Below, piece after piece: positions 146-10,524 of a stretch of 64,000 nucleotides of DNA. Positions within the stretch are counted from its first letter, which is position 1, and each line of letters starts with the position of its first letter. The position numbers and the translations under genes are program-made. The DNA comes from Patescibacteria group bacterium (GTDB lineage: Bacteria > Patescibacteriota > Microgenomatia > UBA1400 > PJMF01). The stretch spans positions 20,919 to 84,918 of the forward strand of contig JBGTEY010000014.1 in assembly GCA_041747555.1 (NCBI GenBank), given 5' to 3'. The notes under the pieces are model-generated. The model saw nothing but the letters and a program-made list of their open reading frames with translations. It was not told the DNA's origin and did no database searches.

Positions 146-838
146 ATGTGTGGATTTTTTGCATTTACCCCAAACATGTCTCCCAGAGAACTTGCTGAAG
201 CACTTGGTGTAACCAACTTACCGTCATCAATGGACGACATTGAATCGCTCAAGTTTTATCCAAAGTCCCCTATTCCAACTGTTTCAAAAAACTCTCCAAA
301 TCAACTCGTGATCCGCCGATGGTCGCTCATCCAAAGGTGGTGGGACAAGCCACTTGAAGATTTAAAATTTAATACATTTAATGCCCGATCGGAAGATATT
401 GCAGTTAAAGCCAGCTACAGAACGCCCTGGAAATTGGGTCAGCGGTGCCTGATTCCTGCAACTTGGTTCTATGAATTTAAAGCGAAAAAAATTGATTCTA
501 AAGTTGTAAAAATTCCATATAAGGTGCTGTTTAAGAATTCAGAACTCTTCACCATGGCTGGATTATATGAGAATTGGAAGGATGGGGATAATTTAATTGA
601 ATCCGTCACCATAATTACCTGCTCAAGCGCTCTACCCCTGAAATCTATACACGATCGGCAACCAGTGATTATTGAAAAATCTGATCGAGAGAAATGGTTA
701 GATAAAAGTACGGACATGGAAAAAATTGAGTTACTGCTTAAACCGACAGCAGATTTGGAGTGTTTTGAAATAGATAGAGGGTTTAATACAGCATTTGGCG
801 ATGATGTGAAACCAAGTTTGTTAGAACTAAAATCTTGA
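146..838 (+). CDS. SOS-response-associated peptidase (SRAP / YedK, DUF159), abasic-site processing protein
   Basis: Protein begins MCGFF (the invariant Cys2 nucleophile of the SRAP family), is 230 aa, and has the conserved internal tryptophan and 'TMAGLYE' regions of the family. Confidence 0.75.
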   Translation: MCGFFAFTPNMSPRELAEALGVTNLPSSMDDIESLKFYPKSPIPTVSKNSPNQLVIRRWSLIQRWWDKPLEDLKFNTFNARSEDIAVKASYRTPWKLGQRCLIPATWFYEFKAKKIDSKVVKIPYKVLFKNSELFTMAGLYENWKDGDNLIESVTIITCSSALPLKSIHDRQPVIIEKSDREKWLDKSTDMEKIELLLKPTADLECFEIDRGFNTAFGDDVKPSLLELKS

Positions 839-849
839 GCTTCTGGAAG

Positions 850-923
850 TGGTCGCACCTGGACTCGAACCAGGGACCTCACGAATGTGAATCGTGCGCT
901 CTAACCAACTGAGCTATGCGACC
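850..923 (-). tRNA. tRNA-Val (anticodon CAC)
   Basis: The reverse complement folds as a 74-nt cloverleaf: acceptor GGTCGCA/TGCGACC, D-stem GCTC/GAGC, anticodon stem CACGA/TCGTG with loop TTCACAT (anticodon CAC), T-arm CCTGG-TTCGAGT-CCAGG, discriminator A. CCA is not encoded. Confidence 0.85.
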
Positions 924-1676: not shown

Positions 1677-2099
1677 GGGGATGTATTGCTTTGACGTGAT
1701 ACGTACTTTAACATCTGCAAGTCGCCATGATTCGGGCGTTAACTAATCAAAAAACAATAACTGGCAATCAAAACGCCGATACAGTTCCAGGTGCAAAACC
1801 AGCCAATGGCATTCTTGCTATGGGCAATGACTTTGCTTCAAACCTGAGAACTCCAGCTTTCGCTTTCGCAGCGTAAAATGGCATTCACAAGTTGTGTCTC
1901 ACTGATGCACGCTTGTGAGTGAAAACTCAGTCAGTGTGACAGTGTGTGCTCTCCTATCGGTACACACACAAGACTTAGATAGGGAGGGCGTGCGGACGGT
2001 TTGTCTCTTCACCGCGCAGGTCAATTCAAAGAGTGACTACACTTGTAGATGATGTTGCAGCTTCGTTTGCGGACAGGGGGTCACACCCCCTCATCTCCA
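1677..2099 (+). ncRNA. ssrA: tmRNA (SsrA), tag reading frame about 1802-1876 encoding ...GNDFASNLRTPAFAFAA*
   Basis: 5' GGGGATG pairs with 3' CATCTCC, including the G3:U70 wobble that is the AlaRS identity element. A TTTGACG box follows the 5' stem. The 3' tRNA-like arm GGACAGGGGGTCACACCCCCTCATCTCCA matches the tmRNA consensus GGACGGGGGTTCAAATCCCCC..CTCCA. An internal ORF ends AFAFAA-TAA, a typical degradation-tag ending. Confidence 0.75.
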
Positions 2100-2107
2100 C
2101 AGAAAAA

Positions 2108-3812: not shown

Positions 3813-5450
3813 TTATTCCAAAACAGTTTGCCCAGTTGGTAGTAAATTTACAAAATGTTCCGCTGTGCTAATATCCAGATTTGATGGATCAATACTCACT
3901 TCTAGCAACATGCCTCGCCTTGTTTCTGGACTAAAGTACTGATCAAACACAAAATTTCCCAGTGAATAATAGATCATTTTTTCTTTGTACACCTCTGATG
4001 GCTGGATAACATGAGGATGCGATCCAATGATGATATCTGCACCTTCGTCAATAAACCGATGCGCCAAGGATTGAATGGACGGATTTATTTCTGTGCTGTA
4101 TTCCACTCCCCAATGGGTATACAAAATAACCACATCTACTTGTGGTCGCACTAGTTTTAAATCATTCATTGTAGATTCAAACGCATTAGACGAAAATTCA
4201 TTGTAGTTAACAAATCCAATTTTCATCCCTTGAATATCTTTGGTAAAGTAGCTTTGATCAATTTCTGTGCCAACATTTCCAAAAAAACCAACGGATGATG
4301 CATTGAGGTAGTCAAAGGTTTGTGTCAATCCAGCCTGCCCAAAATTTAGAGTGTGATTGTTGCCCAAATTGACAATCGTAATGTTGTGATCTGATAAAAC
4401 TGCTGCTGTCTCTGGAGGTGAAGTAAAAATATAATTATTGCTTGCACCAAACGCACTCCCTTCACTTACCGATGCATTGTCTGTAATTGGGCTTTCAAGG
4501 TTAACCACCACGTGGTCAAATTCATGAAAGAAATCTCGTACATCTTGCAAAATAAAGTCATAACTTTTTTGCTTGGCAATCTGTCTAATATAACGATCAA
4601 ACGATAGATCACCAGCAAACAGCAACTTAATCTTTTCAGGTTGGACAACTACTCTTTCTCCCCTTTCATGGGTTCTTACTCCCTGTCTTGCAGGCCACTT
4701 CATTACAAAATAACTAGTGGTGCTGTCTTGCACATGATTAAACTGACTTGAGTTACCGTGAAAAATAATTTCAGGACAGCCTGATGAATATTCTTTGATT
4801 GCTTCTAATTGCAATAAAATATATACACAAGCAGGACAATCCAGGTAGTCATCACTGAGCTGTAAAGCTTCCTCAACTTGATGATTGCAAATCATCGATC
4901 GAGTTGTTACATCTAGTGAAGTTGCTTGTCCAACATCTAAATAATGAGAAAAATCTACTGACGCTAAAATCATCGTGGGTTGTTGCTGCACCTCTAGGTT
5001 GAGTCGATCAGTTAGTTCGTCTAACGCATCCTGAGGTACATTTCTAGTTACTAAATAATTCTCCACCTCTGCATGGGGAAAATACTGCTTAATATATGGC
5101 CAGTGAATGGTAGCTCCGTGGTCACCCTCAACTACTGTGTCGTCAGTCACAAGATAGTTTATATCTGGTTGATGATGGTTGGGAGATAGTAGTATTATTT
5201 TTTTAATCGTACTACCCTGGTTCGCAGAAATATTTTGATAGAAATCGTCAAATCGATCGAGTAATACGTCATGGTGTGGCAAGATTACTGCTTGTGGTAG
5301 CAACTGGGGTGATGATTGTGGCAGCGTGTTTTCTTGACTCGGGACGAAGTATATTTTTCCAAACAAATACACCAGAAACAGAAAAGCAAACAAACCTAGA
5401 ATTACTAGAAAATACTTAGACAGGCGGGGCATTATCGGGAGGCGTGGCAT
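3813..5450 (-). CDS. membrane-anchored CapA/PgsA-family metallophosphoesterase with an extra N-terminal domain
   Basis: C-terminal CapA motifs VDVVILYTHWGVEYS...GADIIIGSHPHVIQP...YYSLGNFVFDQ; N-terminal TM helix; 35-bp overlap with the upstream giant ORF, consistent with an operon. Confidence 0.65.
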   Translation of the reverse strand: MPRLPIMPRLSKYFLVILGLFAFLFLVYLFGKIYFVPSQENTLPQSSPQLLPQAVILPHHDVLLDRFDDFYQNISANQGSTIKKIILLSPNHHQPDINYLVTDDTVVEGDHGATIHWPYIKQYFPHAEVENYLVTRNVPQDALDELTDRLNLEVQQQPTMILASVDFSHYLDVGQATSLDVTTRSMICNHQVEEALQLSDDYLDCPACVYILLQLEAIKEYSSGCPEIIFHGNSSQFNHVQDSTTSYFVMKWPARQGVRTHERGERVVVQPEKIKLLFAGDLSFDRYIRQIAKQKSYDFILQDVRDFFHEFDHVVVNLESPITDNASVSEGSAFGASNNYIFTSPPETAAVLSDHNITIVNLGNNHTLNFGQAGLTQTFDYLNASSVGFFGNVGTEIDQSYFTKDIQGMKIGFVNYNEFSSNAFESTMNDLKLVRPQVDVVILYTHWGVEYSTEINPSIQSLAHRFIDEGADIIIGSHPHVIQPSEVYKEKMIYYSLGNFVFDQYFSPETRRGMLLEVSIDPSNLDISTAEHFVNLLPTGQTVLE

Positions 5451-8400
5451 CTTTTGTAAATTTTGAAAAGTGCCTTGGTTTCTTGATCCAAATTCCGTAC
5501 CCTGCTACAGGAATGAGCACTAGGATGCCAGCCACTATCCATTTCCATGAAAAAGGAAGTGAAGACTTTGCAGGGGATGGTAATTCTCCAGAAGGAAAAC
5601 TATTCTGAATAGCCAGCAATTCAAGAGAATTCTTTCCATCAATCACTAACTGGCTCGCATTGCTTCTAGCCCATAAAGTAGGGTCAAAAGAGTGCCTTAC
5701 TATCGCTGGTGGAGTATCAAAAGTCCCCTGCGAAATAACCCGAGCCTTATATCTGAATGTACTTACATCTTGGTCTGTGTAACTAATTTTCAGCTCTACA
5801 GTTTGTCCACTTATTTTTATTTGACCGAACTGGTTTTTGCCGACATTGTCAAACACGCCATTATCAAGTGACTCATCAATAGCAACTAAACCAGATGGGA
5901 GATAGTCAATTATTTCTAAATTTCTTTCTCCCAATCCTAGATTTTTAACCGTAAGCTCAACTACCACTAAGTCACCAACTTCAATTGGCTTTTCATTCTT
6001 ACTAGCTGACAAATACTTGCGACTAATTTCCAGATGATTGCTCTCACTTTCAGCCGCCCTATCAGTAATAAACTCAGTTGTTTTTACTGTCGAGTACACT
6101 GGTGATTCACCTTGATGCGTTATCTTCAATTGTCGGTCTGTAATCCCACCTACCTCAAAGGGAATTTCTACGACTTGTTCATCGCTTGATTTGAAAGTAC
6201 CTGATCTCATCACTTGATCATCCACCGACACTGTATAAGCAAGTTCTTGACTTGAGTCTGTGTAATACGCGAGGTATTCTGCGATACTTCTGATAAGAGA
6301 ATAAGAGGCCTGCTGATCACGATTTCGATACAAGAAATCTAAACCTTTTTCTACTATTTCTTGATCTGCTTTGAGTTCTATTAATGCTGCCACTGCGCGT
6401 GAAGAGTTCTTATAAATCCCACCGAATCTAAACGTTTGATCAGCTGGCCATGACAATTGATACGAGTTTTCAAACTTAAGATCGAGAATTTGTTGAATTG
6501 CAGCGGACTGATCCACAAATCCCTGGCGATAATTTGCCATAATTGCCATTAGAGCACGTTCCACATTAGTAGACGAATTGACCTCCAGATAGTGTCTCGA
6601 CAAGTCTAATTCCGGTGTTAATGAAAAAGCATATTGCTGCATGACTTGATCTTCATACTTGTTTGGTTGCCACTTTGCAAAGTATTCAATAACTGTGTTG
6701 AGTGTATTTTGATCAACAACGATCCCTGACTTACGAGCAAAAATTAATGCCTCTAGGAATTCTACTTTTTGTTCAGAACCGGTAAAGTTTTTCCAGGACT
6801 GATCTGATTCAAATGATTCAACCAACGTATGTATACTATTTTGAGCAAGTTCCTGATTTTGAGCGGAACTGTATTCAAGATTTAGCTCTGACCCAAACTG
6901 CTCACCAATTGCAACCATGGATAAAATAGCTGGAGCATTCGAAAAATATATACTTTCAGTTACTAAAATAGTCTGCCAGTCAGACTTAAATTCGGGATAT
7001 TTATTTGCTTGCAACGTTAGCACTGTTTGCGTTTTATCGCTCACAGCTCCAGTAGAAACTGGTATGTCATACGTCTGTTGATTTTCACCTAAAAGGTAGC
7101 TGTCTTGCCAAAAACCATATTCATATACGGGAATCTCATGGAAAACCTCATCGATATACTCATTTTGCCCTGTTGTTTGTGCCCTAACATGAAATGTTGC
7201 TGGACTCTGTTGACTAGTAATTTCTACTGGCCAACTCAGCGCCTCCAAACCTTTTGCAGCCAAAAGCAAAGGTTGTCCAGTTACCTGAAAATCTGAGAAA
7301 TTGAGACTAGCATCAATTTCTAAATTTAAATCTTGGTCAGTAAAATTATTAAGTAACGCTGATACATGTAAAATATCACCTTGCCTCAAGAAAGATGGCA
7401 TCACAGGCCTGACCACTAATTCTTTGGTTACAATAAACTCATCTTCACCTGAACCAACTTGTGTTTTTTGATTCGCTGATACCCCAGCAATAACCCAAGT
7501 TGTTAAATTGTCTGGCAGCTGAATGGTAACTCTTGCCTTACCCTCAGCATCAGTGGCAACATGCGGGTTCCAATATGCAGTATCTTTAAATATTGACCTA
7601 CTATCACCCTTATCATTGTGTACATAAATCCCATTTGCAATAAATGTGTGGTATGTATCAACAGTTAGGTTGTATACTGAGAATTTTCCCCGCATCCACT
7701 CAATAGAAGAAACGCGCTCTGTAAGACCTTCTGCTGTGGTCAATTCGTCACCAACTTTGAGTTGACCGGCTGTCTGCCACTTACCATTCACTAATAACTT
7801 ATGTTCTGGAGTAATTTTTAAATCTTGATTGATAATGAGATACCCATCTACCTCAACCAGATGAGTGTCGGTAACTTGTGCAGAGACAAGCTCATCACTA
7901 GTGCTCGATTTTAACGTTTGTATCCAGTCTCCTGTTTTGACCTGACTTATTTCTTTGAGTGACGAATCTGACATTAAAATTGAAGTATCTGCTGCAAAAC
8001 AACCTCCGCCACCTTCTGCTCCTGAGCTTGATAATCCCTCGAAGGAGTGATGCAGCAGCGGGAAGGTGTATCGCTCGCCCCAGAATGTGTCGAAAATTCT
8101 CCCGTAATTATCCCTGTTCAATTCCAGCAACGCCTTATCAAACACCCATACACTGACGTCTGTTTGAACTGGATTGCCTAGGGCATCTTTGGCAGCTATG
8201 TCCACTATTGCTGTTTGAGCAGGACCATATATTTCTTGATCAAAATCAAATGTAAGCTCCACCTTCTTATCGTCGGTACTAACCTCAACATCTTGACTTC
8301 CTTGCACCCAATAATCACCAACAAAACTGCCGGCTGCCACGCGAACATTGGGCTGATAGTCTTCTGGAATAGTGAGTGAGAACTGCTTACTACCGTTGGT

Positions 8401-10524
8401 CAGAACTTGGTACGTTTTGGAATAACTTCGTCCCACATAGACAAACAGATCTTGAGACTCAAAGCTGGGAAGTAACGTAATTGTAGCAGTTTCTCCAGGT
8501 GCATAACTGTCTTTGTCTGTTTCTATATCAATTTTTTCTCCACCCATAATTGAGTTTTTTACTTCTTCTGTTCTGACATAAAAATGCATATCACCTCTTA
8601 TGACATTGTCATGCTTATCTCGAGCTTCAAACTCAATCTCGTGACTGTCAGATTTTTTGGGGGTGTAACTCATAGTTACCTCACCCTCATTATTAGAAAT
8701 CAGGCGTTGAGCTTCACCCACCGGAAATCTTTTGTCTCCTGAATGTATCTCATAAACTTGCGCGGAAACTTCTATTCCATTCGTATCAACGCCTGCTTTT
8801 GTTGGCAAAATGTTTATAGAAAAATTACTATTTTTACTAATTACGTGAGAATTATTACGGTTTGAAGGGTTTTGTTCGATTACAAAATCACCTGGATTTA
8901 TCAAAATTTGCCTGGCATCGTTTGTGGCTGTCCCAGTCGCATCTACATACTCCAAAACAATAGCCCACATTTGCCGATAGCCTGTGGTATTTTTCACATC
9001 TATCTCTAGGTCAGCGACACCATTTTTATCCAACTGCAGACTACCTTGTGCAATTATTGGACTTCGTGCACCGAAATCAGTAACGCTGGTATTGAAAGTG
9101 ATTCCTTCATAATGACCATCTAGACTTGCTTTATACTGGTACACTTTATATCTCACTGTTTGATCGCTCAACGGTTGACCCAAAAAATAGCTACCCTTAG
9201 CCTGAGCCTTGAATGTATCGCCTGGATAATATGTATGCTCTTCTAGATGTAATGAAATTTCGCTATCAGGCTTACGAAACTCAGCTACCTGAACTGACGT
9301 TCCGGTTAAATATGTATCACCGTCATAAACTGTTAAACTGTAATATCCCACTTCCAAATCATCGGGTAAGCTGATTTCATGATCAATTGTTCCCAAATCA
9401 TCAATTAATAATTGCGCTTCATACAAATTATTTTGCCCATTTTGACCTCCAGATAATACTGCTCTCACTTGACCACTTGGTAATGAATACGAAGCATCAT
9501 CATCTGTGCGAAAAATTGCCTTGTAATACAGTGTGTCTCCTGGCTTGTAGATAAAACGGTCAGTGAAAATGAATGATTTTTTGTCAATTATTCTTGGCCC
9601 GAAAGAGTAATACGAACCATTTTGATTGCGATGCGCAAAACCATTGAGGTTAATCGGCACAATTGTCAGGGAGTTATTATGAGAAACAATGGCAATGTCC
9701 AATGCATCACTCGCTGCCACTTCAACAATGCCTTGATCATTGGTGGACACGTCTCCCAGAGTTTTCACGGTGTCTTGTGTATTTAAGAGCTTGATCTTTG
9801 CATCAGCAACGAGCTTTTTATCACTATCTTGTACCCAGAACGTAATTTTGTTATCAGATTTATTTGCTACGCCCGCCAGTGACGATCTTACAATTACTGT
9901 TTTAATTTTTTGGTCTTGGTGCGTTCCCTCTAGATACCATATGCCCTCCTGCTCTAAGTCGAGGTTTGGCCGAGACTGGTGATCCTGGCTTGAATCACCA
10001 CCAATTTGCTGATTAAACGTTGAAACGAGCTCAAGTTGATTCGTATCGAACTCATACAATTTTTTTAATTGGCTTCCATACCAGCCCTCACTTTCTTTAG
10101 ATGAATAGCGGAGATAATTAAGTAAATCTTCTTCATTGATCTTATATAAACTAAAATTTACTTCTTCTTTAAAGTTCCAGGAGCGAATTTCAACGACCGG
10201 CTCCATAGCGCTACTCAGAACAATTACACCTTCATTCATGTTTCTACCAATATTGGATGTAAAGTAAACACTATCGCTTAAGCCAAGCACATCGCCCTCG
10301 GGTTTTTCTGCGATCGGTTGCGGTGAAGCAGTGACAGCTTTAAAGCGAGGTGGCGGTGAGGATTGCTCCACCCTTGCCCCTGTATTAGAAAAATAGTTTT
10401 GAGTCAAATAGATTGATGTTGAGCTAGAAACTACGATGCTGACGACCACAAATAAAAAAAGAACGGTAGGTAAGCGCGAGAAGTGCATCAGCGCACTCTG
10501 TAGTTTCTTTTTTTCGGGAGACAT
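5416..10524 (-). CDS. giant (1702 aa) alpha-2-macroglobulin-like surface protein with an inserted Hint (intein/Hedgehog-like) domain and N- and C-terminal TM anchors
   Basis: A2M_N_2/MG7-like segment 'FKDTAYWNPHVATDAEGKARVTIQLPDNLTTWVIAG'. Alpha/alpha-toroid region with degenerate thioester site AIGEQ (canonical CxEQ). Hint blocks CFAADTSILM ... TPEH ... VYNLTVDTYHTFIANGIYVHN. Hydrophobic helices at both termini. Confidence 0.7.
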   Translation of the reverse strand: MSPEKKKLQSALMHFSRLPTVLFLFVVVSIVVSSSTSIYLTQNYFSNTGARVEQSSPPPRFKAVTASPQPIAEKPEGDVLGLSDSVYFTSNIGRNMNEGVIVLSSAMEPVVEIRSWNFKEEVNFSLYKINEEDLLNYLRYSSKESEGWYGSQLKKLYEFDTNQLELVSTFNQQIGGDSSQDHQSRPNLDLEQEGIWYLEGTHQDQKIKTVIVRSSLAGVANKSDNKITFWVQDSDKKLVADAKIKLLNTQDTVKTLGDVSTNDQGIVEVAASDALDIAIVSHNNSLTIVPINLNGFAHRNQNGSYYSFGPRIIDKKSFIFTDRFIYKPGDTLYYKAIFRTDDDASYSLPSGQVRAVLSGGQNGQNNLYEAQLLIDDLGTIDHEISLPDDLEVGYYSLTVYDGDTYLTGTSVQVAEFRKPDSEISLHLEEHTYYPGDTFKAQAKGSYFLGQPLSDQTVRYKVYQYKASLDGHYEGITFNTSVTDFGARSPIIAQGSLQLDKNGVADLEIDVKNTTGYRQMWAIVLEYVDATGTATNDARQILINPGDFVIEQNPSNRNNSHVISKNSNFSINILPTKAGVDTNGIEVSAQVYEIHSGDKRFPVGEAQRLISNNEGEVTMSYTPKKSDSHEIEFEARDKHDNVIRGDMHFYVRTEEVKNSIMGGEKIDIETDKDSYAPGETATITLLPSFESQDLFVYVGRSYSKTYQVLTNGSKQFSLTIPEDYQPNVRVAAGSFVGDYWVQGSQDVEVSTDDKKVELTFDFDQEIYGPAQTAIVDIAAKDALGNPVQTDVSVWVFDKALLELNRDNYGRIFDTFWGERYTFPLLHHSFEGLSSSGAEGGGGCFAADTSILMSDSSLKEISQVKTGDWIQTLKSSTSDELVSAQVTDTHLVEVDGYLIINQDLKITPEHKLLVNGKWQTAGQLKVGDELTTAEGLTERVSSIEWMRGKFSVYNLTVDTYHTFIANGIYVHNDKGDSRSIFKDTAYWNPHVATDAEGKARVTIQLPDNLTTWVIAGVSANQKTQVGSGEDEFIVTKELVVRPVMPSFLRQGDILHVSALLNNFTDQDLNLEIDASLNFSDFQVTGQPLLLAAKGLEALSWPVEITSQQSPATFHVRAQTTGQNEYIDEVFHEIPVYEYGFWQDSYLLGENQQTYDIPVSTGAVSDKTQTVLTLQANKYPEFKSDWQTILVTESIYFSNAPAILSMVAIGEQFGSELNLEYSSAQNQELAQNSIHTLVESFESDQSWKNFTGSEQKVEFLEALIFARKSGIVVDQNTLNTVIEYFAKWQPNKYEDQVMQQYAFSLTPELDLSRHYLEVNSSTNVERALMAIMANYRQGFVDQSAAIQQILDLKFENSYQLSWPADQTFRFGGIYKNSSRAVAALIELKADQEIVEKGLDFLYRNRDQQASYSLIRSIAEYLAYYTDSSQELAYTVSVDDQVMRSGTFKSSDEQVVEIPFEVGGITDRQLKITHQGESPVYSTVKTTEFITDRAAESESNHLEISRKYLSASKNEKPIEVGDLVVVELTVKNLGLGERNLEIIDYLPSGLVAIDESLDNGVFDNVGKNQFGQIKISGQTVELKISYTDQDVSTFRYKARVISQGTFDTPPAIVRHSFDPTLWARSNASQLVIDGKNSLELLAIQNSFPSGELPSPAKSSLPFSWKWIVAGILVLIPVAGYGIWIKKPRHFSKFTKDATPPDNAPPV
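7615..8001 (-). other. Hint / bacterial intein-like domain (129 aa) embedded in the giant ORF
   Basis: Cys codon at 7999-8001 is preceded by GGGG (Hedgehog-like G|CF site); the domain ends HN-D at 7612-7620; block B TxxH is present. Confidence 0.7.

Follow-up and report, generated by a model that had tools for sequence, protein, structure and literature searches.

Why should a macroglobulin, a protein set off by a break in its bait loop, carry within that very loop a domain of the kind that processes its own polypeptide chain? The question is raised by a 64,000-nucleotide stretch of a Patescibacteria group genome (assembly GCA_041747555.1, contig JBGTEY010000014.1, positions 20,919 to 84,918 of the forward strand; this whole stretch is called the window below), in which one open reading frame (ORF) encodes a giant protein of the alpha-2-macroglobulin (A2M) family. 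Residues 842-970 of this protein are a type-A bacterial intein-like (BIL / PT-HINT) Hint domain, and alignment and domain order confirm that it occupies the bait, or anaphylatoxin, position. The parts of the gene on which the argument turns are the following, with residues numbered along the 1702-amino-acid protein and "pLDDT" standing for the predicted local distance difference test of the structural model.

5416 to 10524, minus strand: A2M-family ORF hosting the Hint domain, 1702 amino acids, 190 kDa (ORF listing, Pfam and family profile)
8119 to 8532, minus strand: A2M bait-region domain PF07703, residues 665-802 (E=2.2e-15, 57.6 bits against a cut-off of 22.7)
8002 to 8064, minus strand: N-side bait linker FPLLHHSFEGLSSSGAEGGGG, residues 821-841, ending in the poly-Gly N-extein, with Gly841 at position -1 (pLDDT, junction census)
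7615 to 8001, minus strand: Hint domain of the type-A BIL / PT-HINT kind, residues 842-970, 129 amino acids, 14.4 kDa (Pfam, NCBIfam, PDB profile, Foldseek)
7999 to 8001, minus strand: codon of Cys842, residue 1 of the Hint domain and block A nucleophile, the only Cys of the protein
7801 to 7812, minus strand: block B TPEH, residues 905-908 (Thr and His present in 193/193 domains)
7615 to 7620, minus strand: His969-Asn970, end of block G and predicted Asn cyclisation site (194/194 domains; intein_Cterm match)
7570 to 7614, minus strand: C-extein and alpha'NT plug, D971 K972 G973 D S R976 S I F979 K D T A Y W985 (alignment), with the codon of Lys972 (position +2) at 7609-7611
7315 to 7581, minus strand: PF00207 "A2M" domain, residues 982-1070, directly after the bait (Pfam E=3.9e-19)

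The Hint domain reads CFAADTSILM...KITPEHKLL...VYNLTVDTYHTFIANGIYVHN, with AEGGGG before it and DKGDSRSIFKDTAYW after it. It matches the Pfam families PT-HINT (PF07591; residues 856-971, E=5e-12, 46.7 bits against a cut-off of 27.7) and Vint (residues 841-924, 34.2 bits, cut-off 27) and the NCBIfam model intein_Cterm (residues 950-970, 25.5 bits, cut-off 15.6), while the match to Intein_splicing (residues 932-970, 34.7 bits) lies slightly below the cut-off of 35.8. When structures in the PDB are ranked with a profile of the Hint domain and its flanks, the Clostridium thermocellum BIL 2LWY comes first (4e-17), followed by BIL2 of Tetrahymena BUBL (6TMM/6Y75, 3e-16) and 8W20 (1.5e-13), with weaker matches to RecA mini-inteins (about 1e-9; 9e-10) and to a Vint domain (5e-9). 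In an AlphaFold2 model of residues 660-1075, computed with 14 homologues, the Hint domain is confident (pLDDT of about 73-94 in blocks of ten residues), as are the macroglobulin (MG) domains, and PF07703 is well folded; the linkers at residues 821-839 and 972-980 stay below 50. This pattern makes the Hint domain a discrete folded unit between two flexible linkers. Foldseek superposes the model on 2LWY with a template modelling (TM) score of 0.85 (root-mean-square deviation 1.8 Å, 30% identity) and on BUBL BIL2 (6y75) with a TM score of 0.81-0.82 (26% identity).

The fold seen in the model and in the Foldseek matches, C842 in block A and T905-P-E-H908 in block B place the domain in the HINT superfamily. 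Within that superfamily it has the defining features of type-A BILs (PMC4031507), namely an N-terminal Cys, TxxH, a C-terminal His-Asn and no nucleophile at position +1 (Asp971), and it lies in the disordered bait loop of a protein with an N-terminal signal anchor, in line with the location of such domains in variable regions of secreted proteins (PMC7765530). It is the only Hint domain in the window; no second one was found there. The first-pass annotation had described a complete module with the same block A Cys, TPEH, terminal His-Asn and non-nucleophilic +1 residue, and the profile searches agree with it; of its label "Hedgehog-type" the likeness of the GG|CF junction holds, while the identity of the module is another, with the Hedgehog profile PF01079 below its cut-off and BILs as the best matches.

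Several other assignments were considered and rejected. A canonical class-1 intein does not fit Asp971 at +1, a length of 129 amino acids without a homing endonuclease and an insertion site that is variable rather than conserved. A Hedgehog Hog domain is not indicated by the PF01079 score (19.4 bits against a cut-off of 29.7, over residues 835-896 only), and no sterol-recognition region follows. The PT-HINT family of polymorphic toxins is matched at the level of Pfam, and what lies downstream is not a toxin: it is the A2M domain, a degenerate thioester domain (TED) and a bacterial MG10 domain (bMG10). A recent horizontal insertion of the Hint domain was dismissed on base composition (GC 0.390 against 0.40 for the gene) and on the conservation of the domain across the family.

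The host protein belongs to the A2M family. It has the MG scaffold, the bait-region domain, the A2M domain and a C-terminal MG10 (receptor-binding) domain, with MG2 (residues 317-413), A2M_BRD (665-802), A2M (982-1070) and bMG10 (1500-1615) all above their Pfam cut-offs, and a profile of 28 family members matches Escherichia coli ECAM (1.5e-124), Salmonella SaA2M (1e-120), human A2M (6e-70) and C3 (8e-43), as well as TEP1, CD109, C4 and C5. Its remaining features are these.

10402 to 10476, minus strand: N-terminal transmembrane or signal-anchor segment, residues 17-41, with basic residues before it (hydropathy scan)
6937 to 6954, minus strand: degenerate thioester site SIYFSN, residues 1191-1196, which reads YGCVEQ in relatives (family alignment)
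5680 to 6027, minus strand: bacterial MG10 domain, residues 1500-1615 (Pfam E=5.5e-10)
5482 to 5550, minus strand: C-terminal transmembrane segment, residues 1659-1681, followed by KKPRH (hydropathy scan)

The N-terminal hydrophobic segment is found in most homologues examined and the C-terminal hydrophobic helix in most family members, with basic residues on the outer sides of both helices; from this arrangement the body of about 1600 amino acids would be extracytoplasmic and tethered to the membrane at both ends. The CxEQ thioester motif that characterizes type I bacterial A2Ms is absent from the 1702-amino-acid protein and from the rest of its clade (P0001-6, P0014), while it is kept in 104/128 (81%) of the Hint-bearing representatives. 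VAIGEQ (residues 1203-1209) was considered as the degenerate motif and rejected, as the alignment places the true site at residues 1191-1196.

The assignment of the Hint domain to the bait follows from an unaligned stretch of ECAM, from the order of the Pfam domains, from the alpha'NT motif and from the fragment sizes of SaA2M. ECAM aligns to the family profile in two stretches (profile 50-840 with ECAM 47-888, and profile 1013-1675 with ECAM 942-1614), and the Hint domain with its linkers is the gap between them (ECAM 888-942). It likewise lies between PF07703, which ends at residue 802, and PF00207, which starts at residue 982. Immediately after it comes the alpha'NT plug, in which R976 and W985 are invariant among 28 A2Ms and F979 is kept in most of them; Asn970, the last residue of the Hint domain, stands only five residues before Arg976. 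In native A2M-family proteins the Arg and Phe of alpha'NT thread through a central channel (PMC9352918), and cutting the bait of SaA2M yields products of 102 and 77 kDa (PMC5764988), which fits the location of the Hint domain. The bait position proposed by the first-pass annotation is thereby borne out by the flanking domains, the ECAM gap and the distance to the alpha'NT Arg; its order of domains was the wrong way round, for A2M_N_2 (now A2M_BRD, PF07703) precedes the Hint domain and PF00207 follows it.

How widespread is this architecture? A first homology search returned 14 proteins that share it, the most distant of them at 26% identity, and a single close relative in which the Hint domain is missing. 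A scan of one genome per species gave at least 576 relatives, and an exhaustive hidden Markov model (HMM) search of 1.84 billion representatives at 50% identity collected 889 proteins at E<=1e-30. Of the best 150 representatives, about 140 match the whole Hint domain and both flanks, mostly with about 1700 amino acids and in some cases as fragments. The best 80 loci are mostly labelled Patescibacteria (WWE3, Daviesbacteria, Microgenomates, Parcubacteria, Moranbacteria, Peregrinibacteria and others). The A2M gene was recovered in 78 of these 80, and in 70 the Hint domain measures 126-134 amino acids, mostly 128-130, its length in the remaining loci of the 78 having been mis-measured by the pattern scan; another count of correctly measured loci, 74, gives 128-130 amino acids. 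Counted by species, at least 78 genomes have the architecture. The window protein groups with those of loci L001-L003, from metagenome-assembled genomes (MAGs) labelled Patescibacteria group, unclassified and WWE3, at 56-63% identity over this region, which points to a CPR origin. Across these sequences the Hint-in-bait architecture is that of a large conserved family typical of Patescibacteria and no one-off, and the same insertion is widespread in genomes labelled as members of the Candidate Phyla Radiation (CPR), where the first-pass annotation had suggested looking for it.

Genes of the CPR type also occur on many MAG contigs with other labels, namely uncultured Gammaproteobacteria/Pseudomonadales from binchicken assemblies (L005, L006, L009, L018, L046, L073 and others), Methanoperedens (L049), Limnocylindrales (L008) and Nevskiaceae (L012). 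Mislabelling or mis-binning is the probable reason, though the gene may also have truly spread beyond CPR.

The chemistry of the domain is conserved throughout. In an HMM-based census of the junctions that presupposed no residue and covered 194-250 Hint domains in A2M context, Cys1 is present in 191/191 complete domains and Gly-1 in 190/191, the Thr and the His of block B in 193/193 each, the Asn of block F in 193/194, and the terminal His and Asn in 194/194 each. Position +1 holds Q in 119, D in 75, E in 32, G in 11, S in 5, K in 3, N in 2 and C, L and A in 1 each (n=250), so that Q, D or E make up 226/250 and a nucleophile is found in 6/250 (2.4%). Lys occupies position +2 in 243/250 (97%), the other 7 having a Lys at +1 or +5, and Gly occupies +3 in 179/194 (about 92%). 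The Hint domain is better conserved than its surroundings, with a mean pairwise identity of 43.7% against 31.4% for 600 flanking residues; Hint and flank distances are weakly correlated (r=0.22, a value reached in 0/500 Mantel permutations), which is no proof of strict co-descent. Cysteine is otherwise nearly absent: Cys842 is the sole one of the 1702-amino-acid protein, and the median among 115 full-length representatives is 2 per roughly 1720 amino acids, corresponding to Cys1 of the Hint domain and the Cys of the TED thioester, with 65/115 lacking any further cysteine. Since the catalytic residues are invariant, Cys is otherwise near absent and the Hint domain outdoes its flanks in conservation, a catalytically dead remnant appears very unlikely.

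Two variants of the C-terminal junction were observed beside the common one. Three family members (L063, L070 and P0261) have a Cys at +2 (HN|QC.. or HN|EC..), a second Cys 8-11 residues further on and their Lys at +5, and this pair of cysteines could form a disulfide loop or provide an alternative junction nucleophile. Five further proteins (P0141, P0170, P0225, P0162 and P0184) are tandem arrays of related BILs joined by very short linkers (HN|KG|CF or HN|KGG|CF); as these arrays also have Lys after His-Asn, that Lys appears to characterize this BIL subfamily.

Orthologues without the domain show what the bait looks like when it is absent. A search with one of them, P0012, collected about 100 relatives above 630 bits, 10 of which lack any Hint Pfam match; these ten, and not the proteins given a "-" on the tree by pattern matching, are taken as Hint-less, and all of them keep the thioester. 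The bait was read in 8 of the 10, and in each it is a continuous Gly run following the pattern ...HSLEGI....AE-GGGGGGG-x(1-4)-R..FKDTAYWNP, in which the HS.EGI...AEGGGG motif of the N-side linker recurs. The Hint domain therefore sits midway in an ancestral poly-Gly bait. Even distant A2Ms from outside CPR have KGGGGG at this position. The runs comprise 5-8 Gly in P0012, P0274, P0278, P0298, P0299, P0305, P0316 and P0339, as also in the Hint-less relatives P0016, P0017, P0019, P0020, P0023 and P0028. Poly-Gly is an odd composition for a bait of broad spectrum, and one may speculate that glycyl-glycine endopeptidases of the lysostaphin/M23 type are its natural trigger.

In a neighbour-joining tree without support values, the Hint-less proteins fall in at least 6 separate places among Hint-bearing ones; in another, bootstrapped tree P0012 lies inside the Hint-bearing CPR clade in 172/200 replicates. 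We read this scattered absence, as far as the sequences go, as repeated loss of the Hint domain, plausibly by recombination between the Gly codons on its two sides. Measured from the HS.EGI motif to the D-T-x-Y-W motif and without the Hint domain itself, the loop is 20.6+-1.2 residues long in Hint-bearing proteins (n=139) and 20.9+-1.1 in Hint-less ones (n=8); its N-side and C-side lengths correlate with r=-0.16 (p=0.06). The Lys at +2 is absent from the Hint-less orthologues and hence belongs to the chemistry of the Hint domain, not to the macroglobulin.

What the domain might do can be approached from the systems that it resembles. With the type-A BIL of Clostridium thermocellum (2LWY) it shares Cys1, TxxH, a "VYN" block F, the terminal His-Asn, the lack of a +1 nucleophile, a length of about 130 amino acids without an endonuclease, and a place in the variable region of an exported bacterial protein (for type-A BILs see Amitai 2003, Dassa 2004 and Aranko 2013, as cited in PMC4031507 and PMC7664689). 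It differs in that it lies in a functional trigger loop, is fixed at one homologous site across a large family typical of one phylum, and has junctions made of a poly-Gly N-extein and an x-Lys-Gly C-extein. BIL2 of Tetrahymena thermophila BUBL1 (6Y75/6TMM) has the same GG|CF N-junction and the same fold (TM about 0.8), and transfers the carboxyl of its N-extein to a lysine side chain (PMC8616854), which by analogy would explain the conserved Lys at +2; BUBL, however, is eukaryotic and cytoplasmic and its BIL2 is flanked by ubiquitin-like domains, and the crystallised chains, a C1A-N143A mutant according to the entry titles, have Ala aligned with Asn970.

Of the Pfam families, PT-HINT (PF07591) is matched above threshold. 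Such domains are reported to precede a C-terminal toxin domain and release it (Zhang/Aravind 2012); downstream of the macroglobulin Hint domain, by contrast, lie MG7, CUB, TED and MG10, with no toxin/immunity pair. Hedgehog Hog shares the Gly-Cys-Phe junction, the Hint fold and the N-S acyl shift chemistry, but the macroglobulin domain has no sterol-recognition region and ends in His-Asn as inteins do.

On the side of the host, bacterial A2Ms of type I (ECAM, SaA2M) and type II (MagD) share the MG scaffold, the bait-region domain, alpha'NT, the TED and MG10, as well as membrane attachment and an extracytoplasmic location; most Hint-family members have the CxEQ thioester, which is missing from the query clade just as from type II. 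The differences are a folded domain of the autoprocessing type inside a bait that is otherwise poly-Gly, transmembrane helices at both the N- and the C-terminus instead of a lipoprotein anchor and, except in a subfamily described below, a Memo-like partner in place of PBP1C or the mag operon. Complement C3, C4 and C5 also have a folded domain at the bait position before alpha'NT, and its removal is their activation (PMC9352918); there an external convertase does the cutting, whereas the macroglobulin Hint domain brings the cutting chemistry with it, and there is no relation in fold between the two inserts.

Hint domains with Cys1, TxxH and a terminal His-Asn form a thioester at the N-terminal junction and are cut at the C-terminal junction by Asn cyclisation; type-A BILs do both (PMC4031507, PMC7664689). 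Given these residues, the domain in the macroglobulin very probably processes itself after export. What then becomes of the bait is less certain, and we tentatively place first the reading in which the Hint domain is excised and the bait re-joined, ahead of the one in which the bait is left cut. After export and folding the Hint domain would remove itself from the bait in three steps. An N-S acyl shift would turn the Gly841-Cys842 peptide bond into a thioester; the acyl group (the N-terminal part of 94 kDa, with GGGG at its end) would then pass to an amine near the active site; and Asn970 would cyclise, cutting the Hint domain from Asp971. The acceptor might be the side chain of Lys972, giving an isopeptide of the kind shown for Tetrahymena BUBL BIL2, or the freed alpha-amine of residue 971, along the published type-A BIL route. 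The products would be a free Hint domain of 14 kDa and a macroglobulin with a continuous Gly-rich bait of about 20 residues, the length found without a Hint domain. The mature protein would be an ordinary macroglobulin triggered by proteases, without a TED thioester in the query clade and with one in most relatives.

Precedents exist for both acceptors: BUBL BIL2, the nearest eukaryotic BIL, ligates through lysine (PMC8616854), and type-A BILs, although they have no +1 nucleophile, can ligate by attack of the freed alpha-amine on the thioester (PMC4031507). Re-joining is favoured here because the near-invariant Lys at +2 (243/250, the rest at +1 or +5) is linked to the Hint domain, because repeated loss of the domain leaves a continuous bait and so implies that the two states are functionally interchangeable, because the bait loop is equally long with and without it, and because the TED thioester, which is useful only given a native uncut state (PMC9352918), is retained in 104/128.

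Several points weigh on the other side. BIL domains give mainly cleaved rather than ligated products (PMC7664689, PMC4031507), and a Ser or Cys at +1, an easy gain for ligation, occurs in only 6/250 domains. Retention in about 90% of lineages, in a disordered, length-tolerant loop from which a merely selfish element should readily disappear, argues for a function beyond self-removal. The Lys after His-Asn, being present in tandem BIL arrays too, might be there for cleavage on the C-terminal side and not for ligation; history instead of constraint may account for the equal loop length (r=-0.16, p=0.06); and the neighbour-joining tree of the Hint-less proteins carries no support values. Both autoprocessing and re-joining, finally, are deduced from sequence.

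The reading that comes next, and that we hold to be a serious if somewhat less probable possibility, is that the Hint domain cuts one or both of its junctions, the ends stay apart, and the macroglobulin changes conformation with no outside protease involved. A cut at Gly841|Cys842 would leave two chains, with the Hint domain remaining on the new alpha-chain as a stopper, like the anaphylatoxin domain of furin-processed C3; cyclisation of Asn970 would then free the plug DKGDSR..F, which would retract through the MG channel. By analogy with C3, the cut at the N-junction alone would be harmless and only that at Asn970 would fire the change. In thioester-bearing relatives the thioester would be exposed, and the protein could be a timer or a conditional, complement-like surface molecule.

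Much of what was noted above speaks for such a trigger: the +1 residue is non-nucleophilic in 97.6% of domains, the BIL precedent is mainly cleavage (PMC7664689, PMC4031507), a break in the bait triggers the conformational change of A2Ms with the plug just after the bait (PMC9352918), Asn970 is five residues from the plug Arg, and the domain is kept in about 90% of lineages although its deletion from a disordered loop seems easy. Each half would moreover have its own membrane anchor, and the query clade has lost the TED thioester while keeping all catalytic residues of the Hint domain. Against it, constitutive self-firing would waste a thioester conserved in 81% of members; independent losses of the Hint domain leave a continuous bait, with the thioester, the Memo-like partner and the architecture unchanged, which suggests functional equivalence; the near-invariant Lys at +2 would have no obvious role; and the total length of the flanks equals that of a Hint-less bait. 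A macroglobulin that fires itself on a timer or a signal, with cyclisation of Asn970 freeing the plug, a bacterial "C3 with its own convertase", is possible but doubtful. Were it true, the exposed thioester of the thioester-bearing majority might, for example, form a covalent tether between the tiny epibiotic cell and either its own wall or a host surface.

The first-pass annotation had proposed that the bait is cut without splicing, or that an ectodomain is shed. Canonical splicing is indeed excluded by the +1 residue, whereas a bait that stays cut is not established, as BILs can re-ligate; shedding is unlikely, since each half has an anchor of its own and the halves of cleaved bacterial A2Ms stay associated (PMC5764988).

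An improbable third course is conjugation in trans, in the manner of Hedgehog or BUBL. An outside nucleophile, such as an amine or hydroxyl on a target protein, the cell wall or a host envelope, would resolve the Gly841~Cys842 thioester, and the target would thereby acquire a covalent bond to MG1-MG6a with its terminal GGGG. The GG|CF junction is that of Hedgehog and BUBL, BUBL BIL2 does transfer its N-extein to lysines of other proteins (PMC8616854), Gly-1 is found in 190/191 complete domains and within a poly-Gly run, and the query clade has no thioester chemistry left but that of the Hint domain. Yet no module for recognising an acceptor, such as a sterol-recognition region, follows the Hint domain; the conserved His-Asn and the Lys at +2 would be superfluous; and the N-terminal part is already anchored in the membrane.

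Still less likely is a silent, structural Hint domain, a folded insert that stays in place as bait or stopper while foreign proteases cut the linkers and whose catalytic residues are historical. Bait regions tolerate replacement and moderate extension (PMC9352918), and both linkers are disordered and hence accessible, but the catalytic positions are invariant over about 200 lineages, mostly less than 50% identical, in which remnants would have decayed, and these proteins, from which Cys has otherwise been purged, keep the catalytic one alone. An ordinary mobile class-1 mini-intein with canonical four-step splicing, to which the weak intein profile matches and the patchy presence among orthologues might point, is highly improbable given Asp at +1 here and Q, D or E in 90% of the family, a length of 129 amino acids without a homing endonuclease, a site in a variable disordered loop of an exported protein rather than a conserved active site, best matches to BILs, and a base composition equal to that of the host gene.

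Whichever of these outcomes holds, A2M and complement are controlled by a single chain break at the bait or anaphylatoxin position, and in hundreds of lineages a domain of the self-processing type sits exactly there, which makes the family a natural test of the plug-in-channel model of triggering. It also offers a ready-made design for the protease-independent or conditional triggering wanted by A2M engineers (PMC9352918). To the study of inteins it contributes a Hint domain that keeps a single position in an exported protein without a housekeeping role, throughout a large family typical of one phylum; the invariant junction signature, Gly|Cys ... His-Asn|x-Lys-Gly, points towards ligation through lysine in bacteria. 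In CPR biology, a surface protein that ranks among the largest in these episymbionts is marked out, together with its conserved Memo-like partner, as a defined, testable system.

In agreement with the first-pass annotation, which knew of no description of this architecture, a literature search covering few subscription journals found no publication that combines a macroglobulin with Hint, intein, autoprocessing, BIL or CPR. One review of A2M evolution, from 2026, mentions no intein, Hint or self-cleavage, its bacterial sources being Gram-negative only, and CPR papers mention A2M-like giant surface proteins only as a presumed protease defence. Database names are generic ("MG2 domain-containing protein", "alpha-2-macroglobulin family protein"), with one UniRef name that starts with "Int". 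What appears new, judged on sequence, is a BIL domain in a functionally loaded site of its host, that is, an A2M with a built-in processing module.

The genes around the A2M gene in the window include the following.

3813 to 5450, minus strand: Memo-like domain fused to PGA_cap (CapA), membrane-anchored, overlapping the A2M gene by 35 nucleotides (PGA_cap 3.4e-60)
1677 to 2102, plus strand: tmRNA (96 bits), downstream of the locus
850 to 923, minus strand: tRNA, downstream of the locus
146 to 838, plus strand: SRAP-family gene, downstream of the locus

The Memo-like part is the N-terminal half of the ORF at 3813-5450; its match to Memo (PF01875) is weak in the window (3e-4) and reaches 9e-25 in locus L034. 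A Memo-like homologue is present in 52/80 loci, 49/60 copies abutting or lying downstream of the A2M gene on the same strand, and such a gene also follows the Hint-less P0012. From this gene order the Memo-like protein is a conserved downstream partner, apparently standing in place of the PBP1C of classical bacterial A2Ms. Examples elsewhere are found at L034:10919-11824 and L081:4921-5670.

The PBP1C operon that characterizes type I is absent from the window, where the neighbours are the Memo-like/PGA_cap gene and a HAD hydrolase. The six-gene mag operon of type II (MagD) is not suggested by the window neighbours either, profiles of the Mag proteins not having been part of the search. Together with FtsK and ABC transporter genes, the tmRNA, tRNA and SRAP genes indicate an ordinary chromosomal context.

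A subfamily of about 2200 amino acids (P0015; L058, L059, L060, L062 and L079) has the Hint domain at the same site and a PBP1C-like gene (Transgly, Transpeptidase and BiPBP_C) upstream, at a median distance of 59 bp; P0015 is without the C-terminal membrane helix. This subfamily links the CPR family to classical type I A2M operons.

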